Source: a virus (Duplodnaviria > Heunggongvirae > Uroviricota > Caudoviricetes). Taken from it: a stretch of DNA of 64,000 nt. The stretch is taken from IMG/VR virus record IMGVR_UViG_2740892229_000011. One strand, written 5' to 3'. Of the stretch, positions 3,853-44,149 are shown one piece after another. Position numbers and translations under genes: made by a program. The notes below the pieces were generated by a model. It saw only the letters and a program-made list of their open reading frames with translations, was not told the DNA's origin and did not search any database. Numbering within the stretch: the stretch's first letter is position 1; every line of letters starts with the position of its first letter.

Positions 3853-3933
3853 AAAATAAGCGTGGAGAACACCTCCACGCTTGATTCATTGGTGAAACAA
3901 CTTTTCTTTTGCCAAACCACAAAAGAAAAACAC

Positions 3934-5115
3934 ATGAGCCTTTATGTTATATCAACATTTAGGTTGGTAACAATATTGCCTGTTAAAAGTGGAATTATCG
4001 TGAGCGAGCTGAAAGAGTTAATTACCGAATTAGATTTTGAACAATGGTTGGACACTGAAGGTATCGTTTATCGACGTGGAGGCGTGAGTACTCGCGGTCG
4101 TGAAGTGAATATCAAGGAGTGTCCGGTATGCGGCAGCTCCAACTGGAAGGTATATTTCAATCTGACCAGTGGCGTCGGTAAATGCTTCGCTGGTGATCAT
4201 CCCGAAGAGATTCAGTTCAATAAGCTGGTCTTCCTCAAGCACTACAGCGGCAAATCACGACGACAGTTCGAGGAATATGTGCAGAACGCCCTTCTTTCCC
4301 AGGGGTGGGCACCAAAGAAAGAAGAGCTAGTGCTTGCAAGCACAGTCGAGTTAGAGGGGCCAGTTGCACTCCCTCGTCATTACGAACTTCCTATAGATGG
4401 CCGTCTTCCAGACTATCTGGTTGAACGAAATATATCGCCTGAAATGGCAAAGTATTTTGACCTACGATACTGCGTCGAAGGTAAGCACGCCTATGTAGAT
4501 CCGTATACAGATCAGGTTAAAGGACAGATATTCGATATGCGAATACTGATACCGGTTTACGATCTGGATGGGGTAATGAAGACATTTCAGGGACGAGACA
4601 TTACCGGTACAGCAGAACGCCGCTACCTCTTTCCTATGCAGCTTCCAGCTTCAGGTAAGTTTCTCTACAACGGCTATAATGCAGTCGGCAAACAGACTGT
4701 AGTTGTCTGTGAGGGGGCGTTCGATGTTATGGGGGTTAAACGAGCTATTTTTGACGAAGAAACATTACGTGATTACGTGGAACCAATAGGAACGTTCGGG
4801 ATGCATCTATCTGGTAACACCACTCAGGATGCAGAAGATCAGTTAGGCGCGTTCCTGACGCTCAAGGCGCGTGGGTTACGTAATGTGATCATGATGTGGG
4901 ATAGTGAAAAGCAAGCTATACGAAACACTATGGCCGCAGCCAGGCGACTGACCAGTATCGGTCTTAATGTGAAAATTGCATGTTTGGGCGAGGAAGGACT
5001 CGACCCCGGCGATGCGACCCCGGGGCAGATTATCAAAGCCTACTATTGCGCAAAACCTTACTCACGACGGCTTGAACTTTTAAGCAAGGTAAAAGGCATA
5101 GCAGCATTAGTTTGA
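3934..5115 (+). CDS. DnaG-like DNA primase (zinc ribbon + TOPRIM)
   Basis: CPVCGSS..CFAGDH zinc-binding motif; TOPRIM motifs VVVCEGAFDVMGV and MMWDSE; start chosen at internal ATG preceded by the conserved AAAAGAAAAACACATG context (track ORF begins 3862). Confidence 0.75.
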   Translation: MSLYVISTFRLVTILPVKSGIIVSELKELITELDFEQWLDTEGIVYRRGGVSTRGREVNIKECPVCGSSNWKVYFNLTSGVGKCFAGDHPEEIQFNKLVFLKHYSGKSRRQFEEYVQNALLSQGWAPKKEELVLASTVELEGPVALPRHYELPIDGRLPDYLVERNISPEMAKYFDLRYCVEGKHAYVDPYTDQVKGQIFDMRILIPVYDLDGVMKTFQGRDITGTAERRYLFPMQLPASGKFLYNGYNAVGKQTVVVCEGAFDVMGVKRAIFDEETLRDYVEPIGTFGMHLSGNTTQDAEDQLGAFLTLKARGLRNVIMMWDSEKQAIRNTMAAARRLTSIGLNVKIACLGEEGLDPGDATPGQIIKAYYCAKPYSRRLELLSKVKGIAALV

Positions 5116-9827: not shown

Positions 9828-10298
9828 GTGAAAGCTGATTTATCAAAAATCCCTTCTATTTCAGGAAATAACGGTTATTCACTTCGTTGTGAGGAAGTAA
9901 AGATAAACGGTGAGTCGGCATATTGCAGCTATTCCGTTTGCCAGCACACCATTCTTGCCTTCAAAGAAAACCGTCTTCCTCGAACTTCTTTCCAGTCGTG
10001 CGCAACCGCTATTAAAGCAGGCAAATGCAAGGCGTTAAAAATGATGGTTGAAGAGATTCGTAAAGGAGAATCTCTGTATTTCGAAGATATGACCGCACTC
10101 ATTAAGGAGGTTGAAGAACGGAATAAACAAGCCAGAACTATAAAACGAAAACGTGACAGTGTAACGATTAATAGCATGGTTAAGAAGAGCGCCACATCAC
10201 AAACAGCGATCACTGACGTGTATGCGGCGTTGCTTGAAGAAACAACAAAAGAAACACATGAGCAAATCGATCAACATATGGAGGCAAAACAACAATGA
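9828..10298 (+). CDS. hypothetical protein (start uncertain)
   Basis: ORF in the gene string between 8984 and the ligase; weak RBS at the listed start. Confidence 0.3.
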   Translation: MKADLSKIPSISGNNGYSLRCEEVKINGESAYCSYSVCQHTILAFKENRLPRTSFQSCATAIKAGKCKALKMMVEEIRKGESLYFEDMTALIKEVEERNKQARTIKRKRDSVTINSMVKKSATSQTAITDVYAALLEETTKETHEQIDQHMEAKQQ

Positions 10299-11617
10299 AA
10301 AAGTTGATCGCACTTAAGCATAAGCTGGACGAAATGAAAGCTATGGGAACCAATGCAAAAAAAGAGGCATTGGCCAACATGGATGACTTCGAGCAAAGCA
10401 TGGTTTCATTGATGCTCAACCCTTTCATCCGTTTTGGGGTAAAGAAATACAAAGTGGTAGAGCCGCTTAGTGAGTCCGTCCCAAGTGACGAAAAAGCCAT
10501 TGATATACTGAATAAGCTGGCCTCTCGCGAGCTGACGGGGAACGCAGCAATAGCTGCTGTTGAGTCTATCGTGGCGTCAATGTGCGCCGATGGGCAGGAC
10601 GTCTTCCGTCGTTTCCTCTTAAAAGATCCGAAAGCTGGCGTTGGGATTAGCCTATGCAACAAGGTTTTTGAAAATCCCATTCCGAAATTCGAGGTGCAGC
10701 TGGCGTCACCGTATAAAGAAAAAGGCGACAAATACCCCTTCAAGCCAAACCCTAAAGCAAAATGGCCGATGATTGGCAGCCTTAAGCTCGATGGTTTGCG
10801 AGTAATTTGCGAGGTTATTGTTGACGAGGAAGAGGTTAACTTCCTTTCTCGTACTGGTAATCCAATCACGTCTCTCGATCACTTAAAGCCAGCCATGCTC
10901 GAATTAGGCAAACTTTCAGGCCACAAACACATCTTCTTCGATGGTGAAGGAACAGCCGGTTCATTTAACCAGTCCGTATCTGCATTGCGCAAAAAGAACG
11001 TGCAGGCAATTGGCGCTATTTATCATGTTTTCGACTTCTTCCTACCGGAATGGCGAGCACAGGCTAAATCCAAAGAGTATGCAAAGACAGGTATGAAGCT
11101 GAAAGAGCGCCTGGCTATGCTGGTGGCGTTGTTCAAAAACGATCGCAGTGAAGGCTACACACAAGACATTCACCTGCATCCGTTCTACATCATCCATAGC
11201 CACGAAGACTTCATCGAACGCTTCATGAAACGCCTGGACGATAACGAAGAAGGGGAGATGGGCAAAGATCCGAACTCTGTTTACGAGTTTAAACGTACCC
11301 GCAGCTGGTGGAAGTTAAAAGACGAAGACTCAGAAGATGGTGAAATTATCGACTTTGAGCCGGGCGACCCGGACTCTGGTTTTGCCAACACGCTTGGAAA
11401 AATTGTTATTCGCCTTGAAAACGGTGTGATTGTTCGTGCGAGCGGCATTAAGCATAAATATCTGGACGAGATCTGGAACAACAAAGAGAAGTACCGTGGT
11501 CGTATTGTCGAGGTTCATTGTCACGAGAAAACGCCGGATGGCAGCTTACGCCACCCACGACTGAAATGGCCGCGTTGCTTACGCGATACCGAAGATCGAA
11601 TCGGAGATAAAGAATGA
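10295..11617 (+). CDS. ATP-dependent DNA ligase
   Basis: Adenylation motif KLDGLR (motif I), EGEMGK (motif IV-like) and WWKLK (motif V). Confidence 0.7.
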   Translation: MKKLIALKHKLDEMKAMGTNAKKEALANMDDFEQSMVSLMLNPFIRFGVKKYKVVEPLSESVPSDEKAIDILNKLASRELTGNAAIAAVESIVASMCADGQDVFRRFLLKDPKAGVGISLCNKVFENPIPKFEVQLASPYKEKGDKYPFKPNPKAKWPMIGSLKLDGLRVICEVIVDEEEVNFLSRTGNPITSLDHLKPAMLELGKLSGHKHIFFDGEGTAGSFNQSVSALRKKNVQAIGAIYHVFDFFLPEWRAQAKSKEYAKTGMKLKERLAMLVALFKNDRSEGYTQDIHLHPFYIIHSHEDFIERFMKRLDDNEEGEMGKDPNSVYEFKRTRSWWKLKDEDSEDGEIIDFEPGDPDSGFANTLGKIVIRLENGVIVRASGIKHKYLDEIWNNKEKYRGRIVEVHCHEKTPDGSLRHPRLKWPRCLRDTEDRIGDKE

Positions 11618-13043: not shown

Positions 13044-13118
13044 GATGGTGTAGCTCAGCGGTAGAGCAGTTGGCTGTTAACCAACTGGTCGGTGGTTCGA
13101 ATCCACCCACCATCGCCA
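13044..13118 (+). tRNA. tRNA-Asn (anticodon GTT)
   Basis: Cloverleaf read by hand: acceptor gatggtg/caccatc, anticodon loop ctGTTaa, T-loop GGTTCGAATCC, 3' CCA encoded; differs from the recalled E. coli tRNA-Asn. Confidence 0.85.
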
Positions 13119-13123
13119 ATTTA

Positions 13124-13210
13124 GGGGAGTTAGTCCGTAGGGGCAGCGGGGTAGACTGTAAATCTACTGTCATTGCGACTCGGGTGGTTCGACTCCATCA
13201 CTCCCCACCA
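13124..13210 (+). tRNA. tRNA-Tyr (anticodon GTA), type II with long variable arm
   Basis: Acceptor ggggagt/actcccc, anticodon stem gtaga/tctac with loop ctGTAaa, long variable arm, T-loop ttcgact, CCA encoded. Confidence 0.7.
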
Positions 13211-13214
13211 AATT

Positions 13215-13290
13215 GCCGGTTTAGCTCAGTTGGTAGAGCGCCTGCCTTGTAAGCAGGATGTCAGCGGTTCGATCCCGTTAACCGGCACCA
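13215..13290 (+). tRNA. tRNA-Thr (anticodon TGT)
   Basis: Acceptor gccggtt/aaccggc, D-arm tagctcagttggtagagc, anticodon loop ctTGTaa, T-loop ttcgatc, CCA encoded; 4-nt spacer from tRNA-Tyr. Confidence 0.8.
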
Positions 13291-13291
13291 A

Positions 13292-13380
13292 CACAACAGG
13301 TAAGAGCATTGGGCGAATCGGCGATACTGACCCACAAGCCCGTAAATCGATAGAGTCAGACCAGTGCTCTTACCGTTGTG
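13292..13380 (+). repeat. Long inverted-repeat hairpin element E2
   Basis: Arms cacaacaggtaagagca / tgctcttaccgttgtg enclosing about 56 nt, directly after tRNA-Thr. Confidence 0.5.
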
Positions 13381-13426
13381 AGGAAGTGCAGCTCTTTGAA
13401 GCAACCAGAAGATAAGCATCTGGCTT

Positions 13427-13510
13427 CACAACACAACGATAAGATCATTACGGTTAATCGTCGTTCATGTGCACAATGACTGGTCGAAAGGTAGTGATCT
13501 TACCGTTGTG
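13427..13510 (+). repeat. Long inverted-repeat hairpin element E3
   Basis: Arms cacaacgataagatca / tgatcttaccgttgtg; the 3' arm is near-identical to that of E2. Confidence 0.5.
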
Positions 13511-13610
13511 ATGAATGCACAGGCTGATGTGCCGCAACTACAGTAGTGCGCGCTTTGCGGGGCTTGCTACAACCCTGTGTCGGAGTTCAGCACCGACCAT
13601 CACAATAGCT

Positions 13611-13697
13611 GGAGAGTAGGGAGCATGGTGCTCAAGCGGTCTTGAAATCCGTCCCATTGTGCAAACGATGATGGTTCGATTCCATTACTCTCCGCCA
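13611..13697 (+). tRNA. tRNA-like element, type II (possible tRNA-Ser, anticodon TGA) with weak anticodon stem
   Basis: Acceptor ggagagt/actctcc, T-arm gatggTTCGATTccatt, CCA encoded, loop cTTGAaa; the anticodon stem is only 4 bp plus a U-U, so function is uncertain. Confidence 0.4.
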
Positions 13698-14721: not shown

Positions 14722-15825
14722 ATGAAAAATAGCTTTGACAGAGCACGCGCTGCGGAGAACACCTCAAAAGAGGCGATAGAGTATCTCGAAAGAGCATCTC
14801 AAATGCAGGCCGTTATGATCTCCCAGGTCAGCAATGACATGAGATTCTCGGACGCATTCATGTTATTCACTCGCTTATCTCTGCTGATAACCAGACGTCG
14901 GCCAGAGATCGCTGTTCATTGTATTTTGATACATGTTTTGCCGCACATTGCCGATGTAAAAGTAAGTGACATTAATAGGTTCATGGTGAACCAACTGGTC
15001 AACCCACTAATACTGGATGGCAAAATTGTTATGGGCCGCCGCGTTTTCTCTCTGATGAAGCAGTTCCTTAGCTGGTGCGCCTTCCAGGGGATGATAGACG
15101 TGTCACCGTTAAACGATATGTCACTTAACAAAGTTGCCGGTGGCGCAAAGCCCACACCTCGCGAGCGGAAGCTGACCGACGCAGAGGTATGGGTGTTCTG
15201 GAATATATGGGACTACTTCAATGTGTGTGCTGGTACAAAATGGGCGGCCAGGCTATGTCTTGTATCCGCAAGACGACCTGACGAAGTACTGCGGGCTAAA
15301 AAAAGTGAGTTCAATCTTAAGCGTGGGGTTTGGAATCAAGGCAAGAGGAACAAATCTGCCCGTGAGCATTCTCTGCCTTTAAGCTCATTAATGCGCACTT
15401 GTATTGAAGAGTTGTTCGAATATGGTAAAGACAGCCAGTGGCTCGTGCCTTCGAATAAAAAAATCGGGAAAGACCTTCCTATGTCTAAAGTGGCAATAGC
15501 CCAGGCATTACGTCGTATTCTGGAACGACCAGAACTGATGGAGCTTGAGCCATTTACACCCCGAGATTTGCGCCGTACTGCGCGTAGTTACTTCCCAGCA
15601 TTAGGCATAAGCCAGGAGGTATCACGTAAAATCATGAACCACAGTCTTGAGGGGATAGATCGGGTCTACGACCGGCACGATTATATGGACGAGATGCGAG
15701 ACGCCTTAGAAAGTTTCTCGACGTACATCGCATCAATCGTAGAGCAACCGGATTTAGACGAAATTGACCACAAATTTAAGGGAGATCGTCTATCAACAGA
15801 GCTTATTCGTGTAAATTTTTCATAG
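14722..15825 (+). CDS. tyrosine site-specific recombinase / integrase (P4-like family)
   Basis: C-terminal catalytic region FTPRDLRRTARSYF ... KIMNHS ... RVYDRHDY (R, RxxR, H and Y positions of tyrosine recombinases; the usual H of the HxxR box is R here). Confidence 0.7.
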   Translation: MKNSFDRARAAENTSKEAIEYLERASQMQAVMISQVSNDMRFSDAFMLFTRLSLLITRRRPEIAVHCILIHVLPHIADVKVSDINRFMVNQLVNPLILDGKIVMGRRVFSLMKQFLSWCAFQGMIDVSPLNDMSLNKVAGGAKPTPRERKLTDAEVWVFWNIWDYFNVCAGTKWAARLCLVSARRPDEVLRAKKSEFNLKRGVWNQGKRNKSAREHSLPLSSLMRTCIEELFEYGKDSQWLVPSNKKIGKDLPMSKVAIAQALRRILERPELMELEPFTPRDLRRTARSYFPALGISQEVSRKIMNHSLEGIDRVYDRHDYMDEMRDALESFSTYIASIVEQPDLDEIDHKFKGDRLSTELIRVNFS

Positions 15826-16206
15826 AGACTTTATGGCCTCAACAACCTTTTGTGATGCGCCTTTCTCTTTACCGAATCGCTCGTTATATGCAGCAAGAAC
15901 CTGTTTTTCGTCCTCGTTAAGAGGAGCAGTGCCTTCTTTGTATAAAAATGCTGCGAGTTCGGGTTGGCGTTCTTCCAGCACCATCATCATAAGACGACTT
16001 GGCTCAATACCCAGTGCCAGCGCCAGCGGACGAACCTTATCGATAGGCAAAGGAATTTTGCCGCTTTTAATTAAAGAAAGGTTGTTGGCGTTTTTATACC
16101 CAATTGTTTTGGCTATCTGGGCCTGGCTCATAGGTGAGGATTCAATCAACCCTGCGATAAAAGCAGCGTAGCGACTTTCTATAAATTCAATCTTGTTATC
16201 AGACAT
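15820..16206 (-). CDS. XRE-family HTH transcriptional regulator (repressor-like)
   Basis: Helix-turn-helix MSQAQIAKTIGYKNANNLSLIKSGK; divergent from downstream genes, with a 250-bp intergenic region. Confidence 0.55.
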   Translation of the reverse strand: MSDNKIEFIESRYAAFIAGLIESSPMSQAQIAKTIGYKNANNLSLIKSGKIPLPIDKVRPLALALGIEPSRLMMMVLEERQPELAAFLYKEGTAPLNEDEKQVLAAYNERFGKEKGASQKVVEAIKSL

Positions 16207-16457
16207 GGTTACAACCTTTGCGCGTTCAATTCTCTCTGGTAAGTGCTTACCGATATTACATCAAAGGTTAGGGTTGTAAAGCTATTATCATTTTTTTCGA
16301 TAGGCACTTAAAAGACCGGTTAAAGGCCATTGCACGGAGAAAAATTAGCCCAAAACAGGTAAGAAAATCAACTTGCATATGATATGAATGTATTCAGTAT
16401 TGATACAAATTTTAGTAGTATTCCTTACCATAGTATAAGTTAGAATGGATTGATTGA

Positions 16458-16670
16458 ATGAACACCACTATTTCCAGCCTAATCGCTCTTGAGATCGGAC
16501 ACGTACAGAAATTAGCTGATGAGTGTGTAGCTGACATCCTCACCGATCTACCGAATGAGCAGATTCAGGTTGGTGTGAATGACACAACTGGATTTATATT
16601 CGAACTTAACAACAAACGCTTCACGCTTCTCAATACCGGCTCCGGGTCTTTAGCCGTCAGAATCTGTTAA
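16458..16670 (+). CDS. hypothetical small protein
   Basis: 70-aa ORF divergent from the XRE regulator; followed by a 9-bp-stem palindrome. Confidence 0.3.
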   Translation: MNTTISSLIALEIGHVQKLADECVADILTDLPNEQIQVGVNDTTGFIFELNNKRFTLLNTGSGSLAVRIC

Positions 16671-16768
16671 CCCCTCTTCTCCCTGCGCGAATGGCTTAGT
16701 TCCCTGTTCGCGCAGTGCTACATTAAACACACTAGTAAATAATTTGTTTTCATAACAAAGGATTAGCC

Positions 16769-18877
16769 ATGTCTAAAAAACGTTCCATCAAAGAGGTTCA
16801 GGACTTCCGTGACAGTGTAAAACGAGTAGTCGCTCTCCTTTCAGGTAAAAACATCCCTGTTGCAGAACGAGGGGACGACGCTTATGTATGCTATAACGAT
16901 GATGGAGAGCCAATTCTCGTAAACATCCCATCAATCCCGGATAACGCAACACCGGCATTGATGAATGCTGTGCGCGGATTTCTCGATCATGAGGTTGCTC
17001 ACATTTTGTTTACCGATATTCGTGTGTCCAACAAAATGAGAGAAAAAGGACGCGTTCCTTCCTGGTCGCTATGGAATGCCTTAGAAGACGTGTTCATCGA
17101 GCGAAAAATGGGTCAGGTCTTTAACGGAACAAGACGTAATCTGATGGCAACTCAGCGCCTTATAATCGAAAAAGTCTTTAAACCAAAGGCTTCAGAGGCT
17201 ATTGCTTATTGTGGCAAAGATCAGCGCGCGCTTTTTCTAAACTTCTTTCTCTGTCCGGTTGTAAGAGCCTGGGATGGCCAAGCACCGTTCGTAGATTTCA
17301 TGGATGAATATTGGCCTGTCATTGAGAAACCAATTTCATTATTAAAAGAACATGGTATCGATGTGGCCGTGCGTAACATGTCTTGCACCGAGGATTGTGT
17401 AAAGGTGGCTGCGACCATAGCTAAGATCCTCAAAGACACTGAAAGTGAAAGCAAAGGTAAGGAGTCAGCTCCGGGAAAAACTTCCGATCCTTCAGACGCT
17501 GAACAGACGGATGCCTCTGGAGAAAACAATGAAGATAACGAAGATCATGAGACACCCTCAGCGTTAGATAATCACAAATCTATCAAATCAGAATCACACA
17601 GTAAGCACAAACATGATAATAACGACGGTGATGATTCAGATAATTCTGAATCATCAGAAACAATATTCGATGATACAGAAAATGATAAAGAGGTATCAGA
17701 TTCTGATGCTTCTGATAACGCGGTGTCAGAATCATTTACCGCTGACCACGAAAAAAGAAAAACGACAGAAGACGGCTCTTCAGATATCCCAACTCCGTCA
17801 AAAATGAGTCTGGAAGAGGCTTTAGAGGAGCTGGATAGCATAGAAGATGAAGTCGGAGGCATGACAGAAGATGCTCTATCCGAAACGATTAAAAGCGAGT
17901 TAACAGAAAGCTCGAAAAGCGAATACAGGCCATACAATCGCTCATACGACTTCATCGGCTCGATTGATCAGGCAGAAGCCCATATCAAACGGCTTATTAA
18001 AACATTCTCCGATATTGATTTAGGAGGATATCCAATCAGCCGCTATCGCATCGTTCCTGAAGGCAACCAGCTCTTCGACAAATATATTGAAAAGCATCTT
18101 TCGTCAGGTGTTTCGTCGACGCTGGCAAAAGACCTGGAGCGAGCAATAGCAAGCAGAAACAGAGTTCAGTTTATACCGGGCCAGCGTCGGGGGCGCATTC
18201 ATGGTTCTAGTATCTACAGATTAGCAATGAATGATGATCGCGTGTTTCGTAAAAAAGAAGAATCTAAAGCCGTTAACGCCTGTGTTCAACAAGTGATTGA
18301 TTTATCAGGTTCAATGAGTGGTATAACGATACAATTGGCTCTTGCAAGTGCATATACCATCGCCGATGCCCTTGATCGAATAAATGTTCCCAACATTATC
18401 ACCGGCTTCACTACATTTGGTAGTCATATGGCGGCAGGAGAACTTAAGGCTGTCAAGTATGAGTTCTCTCGCTTTGAATCTTTAATGCTACCTATCATCA
18501 AAAATTGGAATGAAAAGGTAAATTCTCGCGAAGTTCGCTCACGTATGGGGTGCGTAGGCTACACATTCCCACTTCTTAATAACGTGGATGGTGAAAGCAT
18601 AGCCAGCCTTGCATCGTTATTTTCCGGTCGCATGGAGGACAGGAAGATCATGCTTGTTCTGAGTGATGGCGCGCCGTGGGCTGTTGGGAGAGGTTTTGAC
18701 GCTCATTTGCGTTCGGTTGCGAAGCAAATTGAAACGCAGACTGACATTGATTTGATGGCAATTGGCATCATGACTGACGCACCGGAGAGATTTTACTCAA
18801 ATCATGCCCTGGTAACGAGCGTTGATAGTCTTGGTTCATCTGTAGTTACTGAACTATCTCGTATCATTTTGAAGTGA
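16769..18877 (+). CDS. CobT-like protein: N-terminal HExxH region, acidic linker, C-terminal vWA domain
   Basis: HEVAH motif; long D/E/S-rich central stretch; vWA MIDAS motif DLSGSMSG and VLSDGAPW; conserved TIR. Confidence 0.6.
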   Translation: MSKKRSIKEVQDFRDSVKRVVALLSGKNIPVAERGDDAYVCYNDDGEPILVNIPSIPDNATPALMNAVRGFLDHEVAHILFTDIRVSNKMREKGRVPSWSLWNALEDVFIERKMGQVFNGTRRNLMATQRLIIEKVFKPKASEAIAYCGKDQRALFLNFFLCPVVRAWDGQAPFVDFMDEYWPVIEKPISLLKEHGIDVAVRNMSCTEDCVKVAATIAKILKDTESESKGKESAPGKTSDPSDAEQTDASGENNEDNEDHETPSALDNHKSIKSESHSKHKHDNNDGDDSDNSESSETIFDDTENDKEVSDSDASDNAVSESFTADHEKRKTTEDGSSDIPTPSKMSLEEALEELDSIEDEVGGMTEDALSETIKSELTESSKSEYRPYNRSYDFIGSIDQAEAHIKRLIKTFSDIDLGGYPISRYRIVPEGNQLFDKYIEKHLSSGVSSTLAKDLERAIASRNRVQFIPGQRRGRIHGSSIYRLAMNDDRVFRKKEESKAVNACVQQVIDLSGSMSGITIQLALASAYTIADALDRINVPNIITGFTTFGSHMAAGELKAVKYEFSRFESLMLPIIKNWNEKVNSREVRSRMGCVGYTFPLLNNVDGESIASLASLFSGRMEDRKIMLVLSDGAPWAVGRGFDAHLRSVAKQIETQTDIDLMAIGIMTDAPERFYSNHALVTSVDSLGSSVVTELSRIILK

Positions 18878-18972
18878 ATAAAACAGCCTTAATGATAAGT
18901 AACCACTTACGATAGTTAATGGTATATTTATATAAGAAGTTGAACGCTCATTAGAGAACAAAGGAAAAACGC

Positions 18973-20208
18973 ATGACGACTACTGCACTGCAAAATGAAA
19001 AAAATCATTCTGATTACCTTGTTTGCAAGTGGTGCGGCAAATCATTTCACTATTTTAAGTCCCATGTAGCCAATGGTAATTGCGAGGGCATTCCTGAGTC
19101 AGTAAAAGATGCCGATCCTGACACCGTACTGAAAATGTACACAACGCAGTTTCCAGATGAGCCAACGCTATCGAAAAAGGCACTTGATGCAATTCAAGCT
19201 AAACGTGCCGAGCAAAAAAGCGAAATGGCCAAATCTTCTGGCTTGACCAGTAGCCCTGGCTACACAGGCACAGTTGAGTACAAGACAGATCTGGTCGCAG
19301 CTCACGAACTGCTAAACGTAACGGTGGAAGAACTCGGAACAAAACGTGGGACGCCGCTCATGGTTAGCGTCAACGTCAATACGCCGTATCCAGAGTTCGT
19401 TCCAGAAGTGAAGAAGGGCTACGTATATGGCGACTTCGAACTGATCAAAGATATTTTCATGATGCTTGAACTTGGCATACCTGGCTATTTGTGGGGTCAT
19501 GCAGGAACAGGCAAATCGTCATTGCCTACACAGCTATGTGCTTTGCTCAATCGTCCGTTGATCCGTGCCCAACATACAGCATCAATGGAAGAGGCACATG
19601 TTACGGGGCAAATTCTGGCGCGTGATGGCTCTACGTATTTCGAGCCTGGCTTGCTTGCGCTCGCAATGAAGCATGGCTGGGTTTACCTCGCGGATGAATA
19701 CGACTTTGCGTTTCCACAGATTCTTGGCGTGTATCAGCCAGTGCTGGAAGGTGAAGCGTTGGTCATCAAAGAGGCGACTCCAGAATGGCGTCGCATTACT
19801 CCGCATGAACGGTTTGCTTTCATTGGCACTGGCAACACGAACGGATCTGGTGATGAAACCGGCTTGTACCAGGGTACAAACATCCAGAACGCCGCGAACT
19901 TTTCGCGTTTTGGCATCGTTTCGAATGTGAAATACATGAGCAAAGAGGCAGAGATCAACATGTTGATAAATGCCGGTATCGTGGGTGAATACGCAGAAAA
20001 GATGGTTAAGTTTGCCGGTATCGTTCGCGATGGATACGAAGAACACCTTATCAGTCAGCCAATTGGCCCTCGTGAACTTTTGTTGTCGGCCAAGATTGGA
20101 ATGATGCGAGGCGACTTTGTGACAGGTATTGAGCGTTCTTTCATTAACAAACTCCCTTCAGCTTCTGCACAAGCGGCTCGTGAAGTTGTTCAAAAAATAT
20201 TTGGTTGA
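18973..20208 (+). CDS. CobS/MoxR-like AAA+ ATPase with N-terminal Cys-rich extension
   Basis: Walker A GHAGTGKSS, Walker B VYLADEYD; N-terminal CKWCGKSFHYFKSHVANGNC zinc-ribbon-like motif. Confidence 0.65.
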   Translation: MTTTALQNEKNHSDYLVCKWCGKSFHYFKSHVANGNCEGIPESVKDADPDTVLKMYTTQFPDEPTLSKKALDAIQAKRAEQKSEMAKSSGLTSSPGYTGTVEYKTDLVAAHELLNVTVEELGTKRGTPLMVSVNVNTPYPEFVPEVKKGYVYGDFELIKDIFMMLELGIPGYLWGHAGTGKSSLPTQLCALLNRPLIRAQHTASMEEAHVTGQILARDGSTYFEPGLLALAMKHGWVYLADEYDFAFPQILGVYQPVLEGEALVIKEATPEWRRITPHERFAFIGTGNTNGSGDETGLYQGTNIQNAANFSRFGIVSNVKYMSKEAEINMLINAGIVGEYAEKMVKFAGIVRDGYEEHLISQPIGPRELLLSAKIGMMRGDFVTGIERSFINKLPSASAQAAREVVQKIFG

Positions 20209-20388
20209 TCGTGCGTAAAGGATGTTTCGGCTCTCTTATCGCTGCTTCTGAAACTGGTAAGGCTTGTCTGGTGTGTCCAGACAAGCCTGATTGTCACCAA
20301 TCAGCAAAAGAAGTTGCGATTTCGATGCATGGGAAGTTCGTAGGCTTCCCAAATGACAAAATCAAAAAAACCAGAAAGGTAAAAACAC

Positions 20389-23300
20389 ATGAAGGCACTG
20401 ATGGTTCGAACTGACTTCTCACTTGGGGAGTCGGCTTTAAAAGCAGAAAACGCGGTGAAGATTGCCAGAGAAGCTGGCTACACCGCTGTAATTTCAGCAG
20501 ATAGCATGAATATTGCGAGTGTTATTCCACTACAACGTGCCGCTGGTGACGACATGGCGGTTATTTGTGGTGTGAAACTAAATATCGTTGATGATCCCAC
20601 ATACGAGCACCGGGCTAAACTTGCTAAAGAATCTAAGGGATGTATGGAATCATTAGAGCGAGGACGTAACTACTCGTTTACCGCTCTAATTAAAAATGAG
20701 AAAGGATATCGCGACATCTGCGAACTAATGACGGCGGCCAACACACGAGAACAGTTCTACTTTGTACCGCGTCTCTCGCTCGAACAGTTGGTTTCTACAT
20801 ATGCCAAAGGCAACATCATCCTGCTTACTTCCGACATCGGTAGCGTGTTCCAACGCAACGATTTTGCAAAAATCATAAGCACACTGATTACAGCGGGTGG
20901 AAAAGACAACTTCTATAGTGTGGTTTATCCGCACCCTACCCCATTCTACGACCAGATTAACGTCCGGGCGATGAAAGTCGCCAGCGCATTGAAAATAGAG
21001 CCAGTGGCGTTCTATCCCGCTTATTACGAATCGATCGACGATGCAGACATTAAAGACATTGCGCACATGGTTACGAACAACATCAAAATCGACCAGCCGC
21101 ATCGTCTGCGTATCCCCCACCAGCGAGATAACGCCGTCAATGGTCGCCGCCATCTCCTTGAGGCGCTTAAAGCCTTCTCCGTTCGCATGGATGTGCCGGT
21201 AACAGCTGCAATGGCCTCAACAACGCAGGATACCATTATCGATGCCTGCACATGGCGCTGGCATGAATTGCCGCCAGCACTGCCAAAGATGGCAGACGAC
21301 GAGCCTGCAACGCTTATGAAACTGGCTGTTGCAGGGCTGCGTAAACGTCTTACCACAAAAGAGTTTGGCTACACACCACCTGCTTCTGAGAACAGGGTTT
21401 ATGTTGAGCGGCTAAAGTACGAAATGGACACGCTGACTCGCCTGGGATTTTGTGGTTACTTCCTGATGGTACGCGATCTGATGAATCACAGCCGTGAAAC
21501 TGGCATTCCTGTCGGGCCTGGTCGTGGTTCCTCCGCTGGCTCTTTGGTGGCATGGTGCATAGGCATAACCAACGTCGACCCTATCCGTCACGGTCTTCTG
21601 TTTGAACGTTTCATCAACCCTGAGCGTCTCGACTTGCCAGATGCGGATTTGGACTTCAGCCAGGCACGTCGCCATGAGGTGATCGAGTATCTGAATGAAC
21701 GATACGGCGAAGATTACGTTGCGGGTATTCCGAACTTCACATATCTGGGCGCAGCCTCTGCACTACGTGACACCGCTCGTATTTATGGTGTGGAGTCCGC
21801 AGATATGGCGGTATCAAAAGAGCTGAGGAACGTCGAGGATGATAGCCTTCCATTGGAAGAGCTGCGCGAACAACTGGCAAGTCTCGACAAATACGCGACA
21901 AAATACCCTGATGCATTCAATGCTGCCTGCAAGTTACAAAGTCTTATGCGTGGCTTTGGTAGACATGCGGCAGGGATGATCGTAGCAGGTGTTCCTCTGA
22001 CAGAACGTACACCGGTTGAACGCCGTGGTGACGCGCGTTGTATCGCATTTGACAAGCGTTACTGCGAGGCTATGGGCCTAATTAAGCTGGACGTACTTGG
22101 TCTGGCAACTCTCGATTTGCTCGATAGTGCAAAACGCTACATAAAAGAGAACACAGGTGAAGATATCAATCTTGATGCCATTTCTCTTGAAGATCGCAAG
22201 GTGCTGGATGGTTTTGCTGCTGGGTACACTCAAGGTGTTTTCCAGCTTGAATCAGGCCCAATGCGCAAGCTGCTTAAAGATTTAGGTGGTGGAATTGAGC
22301 CAATGAGCTTTAAAACGGTCGTTGCTACGACTGCGCTCTTCCGGCCGGGGCCAATTCAGTCAGGCATGTTGGATGATTATGTTTCTGTCGCCAAAGGCTT
22401 TATGACGCCGGAATCATTACACCCCGTTCTTGATGAACTTACCGCAGAAACAAATGGCGTGATTCTCTATCAGGAACAGACGATGAACGCGACTCGATTG
22501 CTTGCCGGCTTCACAATGGCTGAAGCTGACGGTGTTCGTAAAGCGATCGGCAAAAAAGACATGGAGAAAATGAAGAGCATGGGTGAGAAGTTCATCGTTC
22601 AGGCTCAAGCTGGCTGGATCGACGTTGAGCTGGAAGATGGCACTACACAGCGCATTCACCGTGCGGAACATTTTAAATGCGAAGACGGAACTCTGAAAAC
22701 TGTCGAAGAGGCACTTGAGTTCGGTGCAAAACTACCTATAAACGCAGTACGCGTTACAGCGTCACATCCAGGGCTATCAGAGATGAAAGCGAAGGAGATC
22801 TGGACCGCATTCGAAAAGAATGGTGCCTACCAGTTCAACAAATCACACTCTGTTGCTTACTCCTTAATCAGTTATCAATCTATGTGGTTGAAAACTCATT
22901 ATCCCGCAGAGTTTTTCGCTGCTGCTCTCACTATTCTTGGCGAAGATAAACACCAGGGGCTGGTTAAAGATGCGCTGACCTATGGTATTCGCGTATTGCC
23001 ACCAGACGTTAACGTGTCATCTAACCGAATCGAGATCCGCACGCTTGAAGATGGCAGCCAGGTGCTGTATGCGCCCTTCTCTGCTGTGAAGGGGTGTTCT
23101 GAGAATGGCTGCCAGGCCATCATGAGAGCGCGAGAAAAGGTTGGCGGCAAATTCGAGTCACTTGCGCAATTCGAAGAAGCTGTCGAGAAACGTGCCTGTA
23201 ATAGTCGAGTGCGCGAATCGCTGCAAAAAGTAGGGGCGTTTGCATCCATCGAGCCAGGTAGTCTGCCAGCAACTGATCCAGAGCGCCTCCGCGACCAGGC

Positions 23301-23907
23301 TGAATTGATGGGAAACCTTGTCATAGATGCAGTTAAAGCCTCACGTCCGTTTGAGATGAACCCCAAACGTTCGGCTGAGATTAACGTGCTCATGACACGG
23401 ATGGCGGCTGAAATGGGCTTAGGTGATGAACTAATCCGCCCCAGCATTGGTATTAAGCCGAAAATCATGATCATTCTGGACAATGCAAACGGCAATGATG
23501 CTCGAACCGGTTACTTCATGGAGAACGGATACGACGATTTTAAGGCCAAGCTGTTGACGGCTGGAGATTTGCGCATGGGCGATCTGTATGTCACAGGCGT
23601 TTGCAAAAAGGTGAAAGACAAAGAAAAGGACTACACCAAAGACGAGATCGGCCAGTTCACCGACTTTATGCGTGAAGAGATCAATCTGGTACGTCCGACC
23701 TATGTGCTGACGTGTGGCAGTCGGGCAACGGCATTGTTTAACAACAAAAACAAGCCATCCGATTTAGTCGGTAGGAAGGAGTATCTTCCAGACCTTGACG
23801 TTACAGTCTTTTACGGGTTTAACCCCAACATTCTTTACTTCAGACCTGAAGAGGGAGAACGACTAGAAGCGATATTAGCCGACGTAGCAGAAACTATTAA
23901 GTCGTGA
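20389..23907 (+). CDS. DnaE-type DNA polymerase III alpha subunit homolog (PHP + polymerase core)
   Basis: 1172 aa; layout with N-terminal PHP-like region and central polymerase region (motifs GFCGYFLMVRDL, PGRGSSAGSLVA) resembling bacterial DnaE. Confidence 0.85.
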   Translation: MKALMVRTDFSLGESALKAENAVKIAREAGYTAVISADSMNIASVIPLQRAAGDDMAVICGVKLNIVDDPTYEHRAKLAKESKGCMESLERGRNYSFTALIKNEKGYRDICELMTAANTREQFYFVPRLSLEQLVSTYAKGNIILLTSDIGSVFQRNDFAKIISTLITAGGKDNFYSVVYPHPTPFYDQINVRAMKVASALKIEPVAFYPAYYESIDDADIKDIAHMVTNNIKIDQPHRLRIPHQRDNAVNGRRHLLEALKAFSVRMDVPVTAAMASTTQDTIIDACTWRWHELPPALPKMADDEPATLMKLAVAGLRKRLTTKEFGYTPPASENRVYVERLKYEMDTLTRLGFCGYFLMVRDLMNHSRETGIPVGPGRGSSAGSLVAWCIGITNVDPIRHGLLFERFINPERLDLPDADLDFSQARRHEVIEYLNERYGEDYVAGIPNFTYLGAASALRDTARIYGVESADMAVSKELRNVEDDSLPLEELREQLASLDKYATKYPDAFNAACKLQSLMRGFGRHAAGMIVAGVPLTERTPVERRGDARCIAFDKRYCEAMGLIKLDVLGLATLDLLDSAKRYIKENTGEDINLDAISLEDRKVLDGFAAGYTQGVFQLESGPMRKLLKDLGGGIEPMSFKTVVATTALFRPGPIQSGMLDDYVSVAKGFMTPESLHPVLDELTAETNGVILYQEQTMNATRLLAGFTMAEADGVRKAIGKKDMEKMKSMGEKFIVQAQAGWIDVELEDGTTQRIHRAEHFKCEDGTLKTVEEALEFGAKLPINAVRVTASHPGLSEMKAKEIWTAFEKNGAYQFNKSHSVAYSLISYQSMWLKTHYPAEFFAAALTILGEDKHQGLVKDALTYGIRVLPPDVNVSSNRIEIRTLEDGSQVLYAPFSAVKGCSENGCQAIMRAREKVGGKFESLAQFEEAVEKRACNSRVRESLQKVGAFASIEPGSLPATDPERLRDQAELMGNLVIDAVKASRPFEMNPKRSAEINVLMTRMAAEMGLGDELIRPSIGIKPKIMIILDNANGNDARTGYFMENGYDDFKAKLLTAGDLRMGDLYVTGVCKKVKDKEKDYTKDEIGQFTDFMREEINLVRPTYVLTCGSRATALFNNKNKPSDLVGRKEYLPDLDVTVFYGFNPNILYFRPEEGERLEAILADVAETIKS

Positions 23908-24581: not shown

Positions 24582-25610
24582 ATGTCTAAGACATTACTTG
24601 ATTTGCTTAACAAAACTCGTGAAGACATTGCCGCCAAACGTGGTAACAACGTTGATCTGACTCGCTTAAAAGACGGCGTCAACTATATCCGCATCTTCCC
24701 GAATAAAGACGACCCAAACGGTAAGTTCTTCCAGACTTTCGGTATGCACTACGTTAAGTATCAGAACGAGGAAGGTAAAGAAGCAACCAACGCTTATATT
24801 TGTGAGCAACATACTCACGGTCGCGCTTGTCAGCTATGCGAAATGGTGATGGAAGGTCGCGCTCGTCACAAGGGTAACAAAGCAATGGAAGAACGCATCG
24901 GTCAAATGCGTGCCACTCCTCGCTACCTGGTCAACGGCATTCTTTCTGCTCGTGAGGATTTCGCAGATGCTGAGAAATGCCAGTTAATCGAGCTGCCGTC
25001 TACTGTATTCGATGATATCTGCAAAGCAATCACCGAAGACATCGCTGATGATATCGGCAATCCACTGAGCAAAGAGGAAGGCTACGCATTCCTGATTAAA
25101 CGTACTGGCTCTGGTCGCGATACCAAATATGACGTCTCGCCTAAGCGTAAAGTCTACAAAGGCGATATCGAAGATAAATTCTGGAACACCCAGCATGATC
25201 TGATCGCATACGCAAATCAGGCTGATGAAACTCGTCTTCTGTCGACAGTTCGCACTATGGGTCGTCTGATTGGCATCGCTGCACCAACTGCCGCAGCATC
25301 TGCACCAGCAATATCCTCAACCGCGAAAACATCGGCTGCGGCACTACCTGGATTTGGCTCTGTCACTGGTCATACAGAAGGAGCGACGGCTGTAGCAACC
25401 GCGCACACACCGGCTTCTGAACCAACCAGTCTGGTTGATGAAGAAATCCTCCGTGCCGTTGAAACTGAATTTAAACCAGAGGCAAGTTCCGCTGCCGTTG
25501 CCGTATCAGTCAAAGAGTCTGAAGCAGTCGCAGCGACATCTGTAGCAACCGCATCTGCGACGGAAGATGAAGGTCTGGATGACCTACTGAGAGAGCTGGA
25601 CTCTCTGTAA
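24582..25610 (+). CDS. T4 gp32-like single-stranded DNA-binding protein
   Basis: His/Cys zinc motif (H..C..C-x2-C in HYVKYQ..YICEQHTHGRACQLCE), N-terminal resemblance to gp32 (YIRIFPNKDDPNGKFF), acidic C-terminal tail. Confidence 0.55.
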   Translation: MSKTLLDLLNKTREDIAAKRGNNVDLTRLKDGVNYIRIFPNKDDPNGKFFQTFGMHYVKYQNEEGKEATNAYICEQHTHGRACQLCEMVMEGRARHKGNKAMEERIGQMRATPRYLVNGILSAREDFADAEKCQLIELPSTVFDDICKAITEDIADDIGNPLSKEEGYAFLIKRTGSGRDTKYDVSPKRKVYKGDIEDKFWNTQHDLIAYANQADETRLLSTVRTMGRLIGIAAPTAAASAPAISSTAKTSAAALPGFGSVTGHTEGATAVATAHTPASEPTSLVDEEILRAVETEFKPEASSAAVAVSVKESEAVAATSVATASATEDEGLDDLLRELDSL

Positions 25611-25626
25611 TCCCATTACGTGACCA

Positions 25627-25656
25627 GTAAGGCGTCTACGGACGCCTTACTTTTTG
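25627..25656 (+). terminator. Intrinsic terminator (AGGCGTC-N4-GACGCCT + T-run); one of three near-identical copies
   Basis: taaggcgtctacggacgccttacttttt directly after the SSB stop; copies at 29228-29255 and 30366-30392. Confidence 0.6.
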
Positions 25657-25670
25657 GAAGGAATGTACCG

Positions 25671-26615
25671 GTGAATTATCTCTTCGTAGATGGCAATAGC
25701 CTGGGTTATTACCACCAACAATCTGACAAATTGCACAACGGCGAAATGGAAGTACAGGCTGCTTTCGGCTTTGTTAAGAACGTCCGTCGTTATGCCTCCA
25801 TCCTCCATGCCCGACCTATGATTCTTTGGGATGGATTTAGTGACAAGCGTCGCGACTTTTACCCGGACTACAAAGCAAATCGCGACGACGATCCTGATAT
25901 GAAAAAGATGAAGGAAGGCTTTGCTATCCAGAAGCCATACATCCTCAAAATGATGACCGCGCTTGGAGTTACCCAACTCATTGCAAAAGATGCAGAAGCG
26001 GATGATCTGGCCGGGCTGCTGGTATCCCGCATGGCACCGCAGCCAACCGTTGAACACATCTATCTGTTAACAGGCGATAGCGACTGGCTTCAGTTAGTTC
26101 GTGAAAACGTAAGCTGGGTAAGCCTGCGTGAAGACGCCAAAAACAAGCAGGTTAATTTTGAGCAATTTGCGGAGCTGACAGGATTCGCCACGCCTCGCGC
26201 ATTTTTGGAAGCAAAAGCATTACAAGGCGATAACTCGGACAACATTAGCGGTGTTGGTGGCATTGGTGCTGGCGGTGCGAAAGAGCTGCTGCATGAATGG
26301 GGAAGTGTCGCAACGATGGTACGCGGCATCAACGACGGCTCAATCGTGGTTAATAAAGGGCGTCATAAGACCGCCTTCAACAAACTAGCGAAGAATGCCT
26401 TCAACGAGAAAACAGGCTGTCGAATGCTCGAAGCGTTCAAGAGAAACATCACGCTAATGAACCTGATTGAGACGAAGTTTCCGCCTACCGAAATCGAAAC
26501 AATCAAAGGCAATCGTGACGTGAAAGCATTCGAGCAACTGTGCTACGAGCTGAATTTCCGTTCGTTCCTTGAAGACCTTGAAGTGTTTGTTCTTCCATTC
26601 GAAAGGTATTGCTAA
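25671..26615 (+). CDS. 5'-3' exonuclease / flap endonuclease (FEN, T4 RNase H / Pol I 5'-exo family)
   Basis: Motifs LFVDGNSLGYY, ILWDG, EADDLAGLL, LLTGDSDWLQL, H3TH GVGGIGAGGAKELL; start set at GTG after the terminator (track ORF begins 25620). Confidence 0.75.
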   Translation: MNYLFVDGNSLGYYHQQSDKLHNGEMEVQAAFGFVKNVRRYASILHARPMILWDGFSDKRRDFYPDYKANRDDDPDMKKMKEGFAIQKPYILKMMTALGVTQLIAKDAEADDLAGLLVSRMAPQPTVEHIYLLTGDSDWLQLVRENVSWVSLREDAKNKQVNFEQFAELTGFATPRAFLEAKALQGDNSDNISGVGGIGAGGAKELLHEWGSVATMVRGINDGSIVVNKGRHKTAFNKLAKNAFNEKTGCRMLEAFKRNITLMNLIETKFPPTEIETIKGNRDVKAFEQLCYELNFRSFLEDLEVFVLPFERYC

Positions 26616-41788: not shown

Positions 41789-41888
41789 CATATGGTGGGG
41801 CATATCCCCACCTTATCTTTGATTTGTAAGCCTTGTTTAAACACATAAGATAACAACTTGTTTAAACACATCAAAAAAGGAAAAACAC

Positions 41889-43978: not shown

Positions 43979-44149
43979 TTGTAGGTAGTTATCTATCTAT
44001 GTATATTGTGTTGGCGCGTTAAATTCCTGAAACAACTATTCGTTTTTGGTGGCCTATGGCCACCATTTTTTTATCTATCTGGCCTTGTTCCCTCAATAAA
44101 TGTAAACTCACGTAATGAATAAGTGGTTACTTATCTTTGTGAGGTTTTT

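Follow-up and report, generated by a model that had tools for sequence, protein, structure and literature searches.

The cobT-like and cobS-like genes of an SSU5-like Escherichia coli phage-plasmid: a viral AAA+/vWA pair with a conserved HExxH motif on a zincin-like fold

In Brucella melitensis and Pseudomonas denitrificans, CobS and CobT are subunits of the CobNST cobaltochelatase. In the Brucella complex, the so-called shaft of CobT (Q373-R413) enters the pore of the CobS ring, and residues R76, D80 and N130 of the CobT N-terminal domain (CobT_N), which is made up of one helix, a sheet of three strands and eight further helices, contact E308, Q311 and R312 of CobS in the crystal (structures 9ujv and 9uka and the CobSTN preprint, bioRxiv 10.64898/2026.07.21.739949, from which our structural comparisons were made). 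In viruses, Liu et al. (2021) described a cobST cluster as widespread in tailed viruses and proposed that its products hijack the CobN of the host; the cyanophage cobT is mostly annotated as a peptidase (PMC8651126). Additionally, Iyer et al. described a metallopeptidase-vWA plus MoxR architecture in phages, for which a role in virion assembly was proposed (PMC7824862). Here, we analyzed a 64,000-nucleotide stretch of DNA (IMG/VR record IMGVR_UViG_2740892229_000011; "the window" refers to this whole stretch) from an SSU5-like phage-plasmid of E. coli, in which a cobT-like and a cobS-like gene lie next to each other at positions 16769-20208. The gene pair, its distribution among phages and its architecture are already described, and the pair is common. 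Our analysis adds a quantitative contrast between the viral HExxH motif and the SMALR sequence of cellular CobT, a mapping of the conserved residues on the Brucella interface, the presence of a Ros/MucR-type finger on the ATPase, and an E. coli phage-plasmid as a clean test system for viral cobST.

The features of the two genes, which are separated by 95 nt, are the following:

16769..18877, + strand: CobT-like gene, 702 aa, ATG start (open reading frame, ORF; Pfam PF06213 and PF11775; PHROG 1576)
16769..17443, + strand: N-terminal domain, aa 1-225, zincin (gluzincin-like) fold
16988..17002, + strand: HEVAH, aa 74-78, on helix 62-81 (script; conservation counts)
17084..17101, + strand: E106-D107-x3-E111 on helix 99-117 (the "glutamate helix"), candidate third zinc ligand (alignment; model helix)
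17429..17968, + strand: acidic Ser/Asp/Glu-rich linker, aa 221-400, predicted to be disordered (composition)
18155..18274, + strand: segment equivalent to the shaft, aa 463-502 (HMMER alignment to Brucella Q373-R413)
18242..18871, + strand: vWA domain, aa 492-701, whose MIDAS (adhesion site dependent on a metal ion) is complete (Pfam CobT_C)
18973..20208, + strand: CobS-like AAA+ ATPase gene, 411 aa, ATG start (ORF; AAA_5; PHROG 249)
19012..19170, + strand: Ros/MucR-type zinc-finger-like module, aa 14-66, with C18, C21, H26, H31 and C37 (Pfam on relatives; model)
19396..20205, + strand: AAA+ core and small subdomain, aa 142-411 (alignment to Brucella CobS)

Based on Pfam, the CobT-like protein contains the CobT domain PF06213 (aa 9-294, 5.2e-27) and the CobT_C vWA domain PF11775 (aa 492-701, 1.3e-82), both above their gathering scores. 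It matches PHROG 1576 ("unknown function") at 3e-299, and the family profile matches Brucella CobT (9uka_G) at 6.8e-63, so that the N-terminal CobT domain, the acidic linker and the C-terminal MIDAS-bearing vWA domain that define the CobT superfamily are all present. For the CobS-like protein, the corresponding matches are to AAA_5 (aa 173-293, 2e-15), to PHROG 249 ("porphyrin biosynthesis", 2.5e-105) and to Brucella CobS (9ujv_A, 1.4e-25 over aa 142-411). A first-pass annotation, made by a model from the letters of the window, had read these ORFs as a CobT-like vWA protein of 702 aa and a CobS/MoxR-like ATPase of 411 aa; the Pfam, PHROG and Brucella matches agree with this assignment, and the two ORFs and all the motifs that it quoted were recovered from the ORF list and by script.

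The HExxH motif is kept in 143 of the 147 best cluster representatives at 50% identity, in all 120 SSU5-like relatives and in 103 of 111 diverse relatives, including distant phages such as Gordonia phage Anamika (HEIGH), Roseobacter phage CRP-810 (HEAGH) and Vibrio phage ICP2 (HECYH). Residues G70, D73, E75, E106 and G120 are invariant in two alignments of 78 and 103 sequences, in both of which H74 and H78 are nearly invariant; E111 and N124 are invariant in the former and conserved in at least 90% of the sequences in the latter. Judging from these counts, the HExxH of the viral family is under purifying selection.

When the PDB was searched with phmmer and with profiles, the local alignment to Brucella CobT began after the HExxH stretch. 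The cellular comparison was therefore built on 80 alphaproteobacterial cobT loci, fetched with Brucella CobT from the HMMER display as the query, from 46 of which the N-terminal region was recovered. HExxH was found in none of these 46 sampled sequences, and 45 of them have RG[LH][GA]D[SA][MIL]AL[RK] at the motif site, typically RGLGDSMALR; MAFFT aligned the phage G-F-L-D-H-E-V-A-H with the cellular G-L-G-D-S-M-A-L-R. The intact HExxH is the conserved, and probably the ancestral, state of a very large viral family, cellular CobT having the same fold with a degenerate motif. The motif had been regarded in the first-pass annotation as an addition that marks a variant; this part of its reading does not stand, given the conservation across a family of 5087 clusters.

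An AlphaFold model of aa 1-225, built from the 103-sequence alignment, was obtained with a mean predicted local distance difference test score (pLDDT) of 92.8 and a predicted template modelling score of 0.88, and its topology matches that of Brucella CobT_N exactly. In the model, HEVAH is on helix 62-81, after a small beta-sheet, and E106 and E111 are on helix 99-117. HEVAH is thus on the canonical active-site helix, where a zincin active site should be, and not on a non-catalytic helix, which was part of the outcome that the first-pass annotation had named as refuting its proposal. Listed beside this model are M32 carboxypeptidase (6.6), ZMPSTE24 (6.5), Ste24 (6.3), ArdC (5.9), BlaR1 (5.5), BepA (5.5), jannalysin (5.4), Spartan (5.4), an M48 peptidase (5.4), CapP (5.2) and Wss1 (5.0). 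At the sequence level, PHROG 459 ("peptidase") gives a weak match over the HExxH region. With Pfam at E<=10, the N-domains alone matched PF06213 and, at chance level (E >= 0.046), unrelated families, the sole peptidase matches being faint ones to M48/M3 in a Gordonia phage.

The remainder of the CobT-like protein follows the Brucella plan. The linker (aa 221-400) is composed of 18% Ser, 15% Glu and 14% Asp, has a net charge of -36 as computed by script, and differs in length among homologues; it is present as the first-pass annotation had noted, yet it is not distinctive, because Brucella CobT also has an acidic linker. Within the shaft-equivalent segment, G471, G475, L482 and F493 are conserved. 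The MIDAS residues D511, S513, S515, N605 and D633 are all invariant in alignment A3 and are aligned to Brucella D422, S424, S426, N518 and D546; the DLSGS at aa 511-515 belongs to a DxSGS motif kept in 373 of 377 sequences.

In the CobS-like protein, Walker A (GHAGTGKS, aa 175-182) and Walker B (LADEYD, aa 239-244) were located by script and are kept in 120 of 120 sequences. At these levels of retention, the HExxH, DxSGS and Walker motifs are no chance occurrences. The alignment A5, of 101 sequences, has as invariant positions K181 of Walker A, D241 and E242 of Walker B, N288 of sensor 1, the Arg finger R312 and R367 of sensor 2, and the catalytic residues align to the Brucella Walker A K, D141-E142, N186, R210 and R271. 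All of the ATPase motifs are present and a MIDAS-bearing vWA gene is adjacent, as in MoxR-type AAA+/vWA pairs.

The Brucella contacts can also be traced in both proteins. In the CobT-like protein, their equivalents are R69, D73 and N124, the last two being among the conserved positions given above; in the CobS-like protein, they are E404, Q407 and K408, of which Q407 and R/K408 are nearly invariant (at least 90% in A5), and E404 is matched to E308 from the pairwise alignment alone. Based on these interface residues, the two proteins probably form a physical complex.

We propose that the pair is a lytic-phase, CobST-type AAA+/vWA motor with a zincin site that cleaves a client other than CobN, a reading to which we give an even chance. 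Six CobS-like subunits would form a ring; the N-domain of the CobT-like protein would dock on the ATPase small subdomain, and its shaft would thread into the ring pore. The vWA/MIDAS face would remain exposed and capture a client protein, and the zincin site (HExxH and the downstream Glu), retained here and not in the cellular subunit, would couple ATP-driven remodelling to zinc-dependent cleavage of the client. The pair would be produced only upon derepression of the lytic or replicative programme and would act together with the replication and recombination genes of the element. Either a host protein that is removed or inactivated, or a component of the phage replisome or recombination machinery that is matured, would serve as the client. 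Taken separately, proteolytic activity of the CobT-like protein is slightly more likely than not. The suggestion in the first-pass annotation of a remodelling machine of unknown substrate is the part of its functional reading that fits best.

Several observations weigh against this proposal. The His ligands are gone and the gene is kept in Pseudomonas phage nickie (SEISK) and Stenotrophomonas phage BUCTxx99 (REVST), as well as in approximately 5% of the diverse relatives, which indicates that proteolysis is not indispensable for the core function. E106 and E111 are conserved in cellular CobT, where HExxH is missing, and their conservation is thus no proof of zinc binding. No Pfam peptidase family matched the N-domain sequence, and the searched literature contains no experiment on any viral CobST-like pair. 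Additionally, the synteny with replication genes, described below, partly reflects the shared ancestry of one phage supergroup and is not independent evidence.

The same observations bear on an alternative, in which the pair is a pure chaperone of the MoxR/vWA type without proteolysis: the N-domain would be a docking module and the metal of the HExxH would have a structural or delivery role, for example in the insertion of a metal cofactor into, or the assembly of, a phage enzyme such as DnaE, through its PHP domain, or NrdB. The persistence of the gene in nickie and BUCTxx99 after the loss of the motif fits this alternative, and so does the location of D73 and N124, which lie by the motif and correspond to ATPase-contact residues in Brucella. 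The characterised relatives CobST, NorQ/NorD and CbbQ/CbbO are all non-proteolytic remodelling or metal-insertion machines, and a dnaE with a PHP domain is a conserved neighbour of the pair. Nevertheless, ICP2 carries the pair with another type of polymerase, cellular CobT docks without the motif, and it is difficult to account for the retention of both His and the Glu in about 95% of phage proteins at 28-40% identity unless the motif has a catalytic or metal-binding role. We consider a pure chaperone unlikely, although it is the strongest of the rival explanations.

The names of both proteins raise the question of cobalt chelation. Based on the NCBIfam equivalogs, the CobT-like protein scored 71.8 bits against TIGR01651 (cutoff 759.05) and the CobS-like protein 84.2 bits against TIGR01650 (cutoff 558.55), missing the cutoffs approximately 10-fold and 6.6-fold, respectively. 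No CobN or tetrapyrrole gene is present among the PGAP-listed products of the element, which is approximately 110 kb in size, and its ribonucleotide reductase (RNR) is the B12-independent class Ia NrdAB, which removes the usual rationale for a B12 supply by the phage. De novo B12 synthesis in E. coli requires approximately 30 heterologous genes, including cobN, cobS and cobT (Fang et al. 2018; PMC6249242); the lack of CobN in the host is taken from that work, E. coli chromosomes not having been searched. In its E. coli host, the pair is very probably not a chelatase.

These results are to be set against the published hypothesis that the pair is an auxiliary metabolic gene set, whose CobS and CobT join the CobN of the host in an active cobaltochelatase and thereby provide more cobalamin during infection (PMC8651126). 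The homology to CobS and CobT is clear, and the MIDAS, shaft and ATPase are all intact, as this hypothesis would have it. On the other side stand the missed equivalog thresholds, the element without CobN or tetrapyrrole genes, a host that needs a heterologous cobN, the B12-independent RNR and the silence of both genes in lysogens, as well as the conserved HExxH and the Ros/MucR finger, which play no part in chelation and are missing from the cellular subunits. The hosts divide in the same manner: Rhizobium and Pseudomonas, which are hosts of some related phages, use the aerobic pathway, in favour of the hypothesis, while Salmonella and Klebsiella, in which SSU5-like elements reside, rely on the CbiK route, which counts against it. 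On balance, we regard this explanation as highly improbable.

In agreement with a wide viral distribution, an exhaustive HMMER search retrieved 5087 clusters (50% identity) at E<=1e-3, of which 522 were at E<=1e-30. With tblastn, the CobT-like protein matched phages that infect Klebsiella, Rhizobium, Pseudomonas, Stenotrophomonas, Roseobacter, Vibrio, Gordonia, Rhodococcus and Tsukamurella. None of the 77 phage records matched was that of a cyanophage, these sequences being too distant for tblastn. The structural matches in BFVD include siphoviruses, podoviruses, the haloarchaeal viruses HVTV-1, HHTV-2 and HCTV-2, and Gordonia phages. The window itself shows 98.9% identity to Escherichia phage Cyrano and 74.9% to Salmonella phage SSU5, with 59% of the query matched. 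Of 5426 complete E. coli genomes, 244 have a plasmid match; the matches are at 257 places, all of them on plasmids and none on a chromosome; the top match is a plasmid of E. coli strain 2013C-4991, given as 100.0% identical.

The pair is thus neither rare nor new: besides the published architecture (PMC7824862), the same genes are annotated in SSU5, Cyrano and these E. coli genomes. SSU5 gp049 and gp050 are annotated as "putative porphyrin biosynthetic protein", and RefSeq holds the exact proteins as "cobaltochelatase CobT-related protein" and "AAA family ATPase". In Cyrano (OV696614.1), the counterparts of 16769-20208, CYRAN_47 and CYRAN_48, are labelled "dimethylbenzimidazole phosphoribosyltransferase" and "cobalamin synthetase". 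These labels are an annotation error, a gene-name collision with the unrelated CobT and CobS of the Salmonella nomenclature; a cyanophage paper likewise gives cobS as "cobalamin synthetase" (PMC9983427).

The AAA+ gene adjoins the CobT-like gene in 11 of 11 contexts inspected, and in nine of them the pair is surrounded by genes for replication, recombination or the control of lysogeny. Ligase, pair and dnaE follow one another in this order in SSU5, in Pseudomonas phage nickie, in Rhizobium phage RHEph10 and in Stenotrophomonas phage BUCTxx99, and also in a Ralstonia prophage. Prophages in Ralstonia and in a soil betaproteobacterium share integrase, helix-turn-helix (HTH) regulators, a small ORF, the pair, dnaE, single-stranded DNA-binding protein (SSB), exonuclease and RecA, and in the Vibrio podophage ICP2 the pair is directly upstream of the genes for primase, helicase and a polymerase that is not of the DnaE type. 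The neighbours are unannotated in Gordonia phage Anamika and, save for a DNA-repair glycosylase, in Roseobacter phage CRP-810. As a side observation, the dnaE that follows the pair in the Ralstonia pickettii prophage (L089, 15033-18401) and in the soil contig (L090, 15214-19555) encodes a C-terminal uracil-DNA-glycosylase-like domain (PF03167), and that of the soil contig is divided by an HNH endonuclease gene; the DnaE of the window has no match to this domain at E<=0.001.

In the window, the pair is likewise embedded in a block of replication and recombination genes, in the order helicase, primase, ligase, integrase and repressor, pair, DnaE, SSB, exonuclease and RecA:

2512-3852: DnaB-like helicase (Pfam)
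3862-5115: primase (Pfam)
10295-11617: ATP-dependent ligase (Pfam)
13044-13697, + strand: four tRNA genes (Asn-GTT, Tyr-GTA, Thr-TGT, Ser-TGA), directly upstream of the integrase
14722-15825: integrase, upstream of the pair
15820..16206, - strand: divergent HTH regulator, putative lysogeny repressor, equivalent to CYRAN_45 (PHROG 8, 1.3e-11; weak HTH_19)
16458..16670, + strand: small ORF, 70 aa, which opens the rightward transcription unit, equivalent to CYRAN_46 (PHROG 2627, 9e-41)
20205..20414, + strand: small Cys-rich ORF, 69 aa, TTG start (PHROG 6337, 2e-45), at the same place as gp051 (SSU5_051) in SSU5
20389..23907, + strand: DnaE-type DNA polymerase III alpha (Pfam PHP, DNA_pol3_alpha, finger, HHH_6)
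24582-25610: gp32-like SSB (Pfam)
25620-26615: 5'-3' exonuclease (Pfam)
26884-29223, + strand: RecA with an intein (Pfam RecA, Intein_splicing, LAGLIDADG_3)

The pair is located between the HTH regulator (15820-16206) and dnaE (20389-23907), in accordance with the first-pass annotation, which had placed it between a lysogeny-type regulator and a polymerase. This conserved position suggests that the client is a host protein in need of removal or a phage replisome component in need of maturation; that the client is related to replication is, nevertheless, a tentative and rather doubtful idea.

The expression of the pair was evaluated with the published RNA-seq data of E. coli LF82 carrying Cyrano, as lysogens in LB (S1 Table of PMC9928086), in normalised reads:

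CYRAN_47, CobT-like: 7.8
CYRAN_48, CobS-like: 6.7
CYRAN_49, DnaE: 10.1
CYRAN_1 and CYRAN_2, terminase small and large subunits: 7.1 and 8.4
CYRAN_5, major capsid protein: 7.4
CYRAN_45, repressor: 95.8, 10x above the local background

Since both genes are at background in Cyrano lysogens, they are silent in the plasmid-prophage state and form part of the repressed programme. This silence indicates that the pair is not needed at a high level for replication in plasmid mode. A plasmid-maintenance or moron role was also considered and was rejected on the same background-level expression.

Expression as low as that of the structural genes is compatible with a further alternative, a chaperone or protease for virion assembly that folds and processes structural proteins. 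This role, together with the same architecture, has been proposed for the group 2.2 jumbo phages, by analogy with a MoxR-vWA system that is needed for tail development in the Acidianus two-tailed virus (PMC7824862). The genomic contexts point elsewhere: the pair is in a structural or packaging module in none of the 11 contexts, and the capsid, terminase and tail genes of the element are tens of kb away from it, which makes virion assembly an improbable function here.

A possible control element was observed between the 70-aa ORF and the CobT-like gene, where a perfect 9-bp inverted repeat, CTGCGCGAA/TTCGCGCAG, forms a hairpin at 16683-16715. The 106-nt hairpin region has a folding energy of -24.3 kcal/mol (z -2.9) and no U-tract follows it. 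In macrophages infected for 6 h with LF82/Cyrano, CYRAN_46 was at log2 10.8 vs 5.9 for the CobT-like gene, an approximately 30-fold drop across the hairpin gap. The hairpin may act as a terminator or attenuator and thereby control entry into the cobT-like/cobS-like/dnaE unit. Over 15700-20600, scans for promoters and terminators gave results no better than those of shuffled sequence.

At the other end of the pair, the 69-aa ORF at 20205-20414 overlaps the stop of the CobS-like gene by 4 nt (TTGA) and the start of dnaE by 26 nt, and it is possibly coupled translationally to both genes. It contains CLVCPDKPDCH and is a conserved companion in SSU5-like elements.

The N-terminus of the CobS-like protein precedes the AAA+ core and includes CKWC (aa 18-21), H26, H31 and C37. 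When the complete ATPase was modelled with AF2 (pLDDT 89.2), residues 12-89 were confidently predicted as a hairpin followed by helices. The consensus of 101 sequences is C-x2-[C/D]-G-x3-H-x4-[H/Y]-L-x3-H-P-x-W-T-x-E-x-Y...P-D-A-P-L-L-S, in which C18 is conserved in 100% and H26 in 99% of the sequences, while the column of C21 has C in 66 and D in 35 sequences, and that of H31 has H in 84 and Y in 17. Pfam ROS_MUCR (PF05443) matched 43 of these 101 family members at E<=0.1, at profile positions 61-117, the finger region. When six relatives were scanned singly, four scored above the gathering score of 25.4 (range 28.8-33.8 bits), P0482 with 33.8 bits and P0431, P0445 and P0484 with approximately 28.9. 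The window protein itself has no ROS_MUCR match even at E<=10; its finger has C18, C21 and H31, followed by N36/C37 in place of the last His, as in a subgroup of 16 of the 101 sequences. The ligand patterns in the family are CHH (50), CHC (24), DHH (18), DYH (11) and DYY (7), and the change from Cys to Asp at the second ligand is the CysAspHis2 variant of the Mesorhizobium Ros homologues, including Ml1-3 (PMC9779718). From these profile matches and the model, the Cys-rich N-terminus is predicted to be a Ros/MucR-type C2H2-like finger.

The zinc ribbon that the first-pass annotation had suggested for this segment was rejected, because just one CxxC is present and the model shows a single hairpin followed by helices. 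The net charge of the finger module is -3 in the window protein, with a family mean of -1.5, and this acidic character makes DNA binding, the classical Ros/MucR function, doubtful; recognition of a protein is as likely as DNA binding. This N-terminal extension is specific to the lineage: it is missing from the ATPase of ICP2, and those of Anamika and CRP-810 are long and unrelated. A literature search found no description of a fusion between a MucR finger and an AAA+ ATPase.

With RepB and ParB together with capsid, terminase and tail genes, the element has the gene set of an SSU5-like phage-plasmid; product names beyond the Pfam ones are those of the PGAP annotation of the matching plasmid. 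In that plasmid, NZ_CP027358.1 67144-69251, which corresponds to 16769-18877, is annotated as "frameshifted", one base differing over 4051, and the ORF of the window is intact. Other genes of NZ_CP027358.1 are likewise flagged as frameshifted, which suggests assembly indel errors and not real decay. The tRNA count at the position of 13044-13697 is four in the window, three in Cyrano and one in SSU5. RecA (26884-29223) is split by an intein bearing a LAGLIDADG homing endonuclease and is named by PGAP "LAGLIDADG family homing endonuclease". The PGAP-named genes for nucleotide metabolism include the class Ia NrdA/NrdB, thymidylate synthase and the trimethoprim-resistant DfrA51 (45665-46141, + strand; neighbours at 39473-43031 and 44123-45253), and those for host-like housekeeping functions are apbC, an Fe-S cluster carrier (62137-63237, - strand), and metG, methionyl-tRNA synthetase (from approximately 63394 to the window end). 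A PADLOC scan for defence systems gave nothing besides a chance-level match to DrmE.

In many marine and gut virome studies, viral cobS and cobT are counted as B12 auxiliary metabolic genes without a demonstrated function. The E. coli host of this element cannot use the module for cobalt chelation and is genetically tractable, and is thus suited to settle its role. If the zincin site is catalytic, thousands of viral "cobalamin biosynthesis" annotations need correction, and the origin of the chelatase adaptor subunit becomes clearer. Extending the reading beyond this element, we tentatively suggest, at somewhat less than even likelihood, that viral cobT and cobS, including the near-universal cobS of the cyanomyovirus core, are not cobalamin genes but encode ATP-driven zincin protease/unfoldase machines that would cleave a specific client protein, or strip it, at an early stage of infection; the chelatase subunits of cells would be a derived, protease-dead offshoot, and the Ros/MucR-type finger a targeting module. 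Neither of the published roles, CobN hijack and virion assembly, fits the host and gene context of this element.

Among the closest described systems are the viral cobST genes and the phage MoxR plus metallopeptidase-vWA genes, such as the cyanophage core "cobS" with its adjacent "peptidase" and those of haloarchaeal tailed viruses and group 2.2 jumbo phages. They have the same two-gene module, with an N-terminal metallopeptidase-like domain fused to a vWA domain, and differ in the N-terminal extension of the ATPase, which is here the Ros/MucR-type finger. This finger resembles the Ros/MucR domain PF05443 in its C-x2-C/D ... H-x4-H signature and its beta-beta-alpha-alpha secondary structure; however, it is joined to an AAA+ ATPase and not to an oligomerisation domain.

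The MoxR-type pairs NorQ/NorD, CbbQ/CbbO and RavA/ViaA and the Mg-chelatase BchI/BchD share with this locus an AAA+ ring and a MIDAS-bearing client adaptor. CbbQ and NorQ/NorD are among the PDB sequence matches, and 88 of 101 members of the CobS-like family have a CbbQ_C domain. Nevertheless, the adaptors of these pairs have no zincin domain with an intact HExxH, and their clients are metabolic enzymes encoded nearby, whereas no such client gene is found here. For the zincin domain itself, the comparators are metallopeptidases that act near DNA or with AAA+ partners (ArdC, Spartan/SprT and Wss1), together with M48 Ste24/BepA, M56 BlaR1 and the M32 carboxypeptidases.

Compared with the CobNST subunits of B. 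melitensis and P. denitrificans, the phage pair has the same ATPase catalytic residues and adjacent genes, although the order is T then S in the phage and S then T in cells. Brucella CobT has the same plan as its phage counterpart, with a zincin-like N-domain, an acidic disordered linker, a shaft and a vWA domain with MIDAS, and the contacts with the ATPase are conserved. The phage CobS-like protein is approximately 29% identical to cellular CobS in the ATPase, has approximately 100 extra N-terminal residues with the Ros/MucR-type finger, and ends approximately 13 residues before Brucella CobS, so that part of helix alpha-10 is missing. Finally, cellular CobT has SMALR at the site where the phage protein has an intact HExxH.

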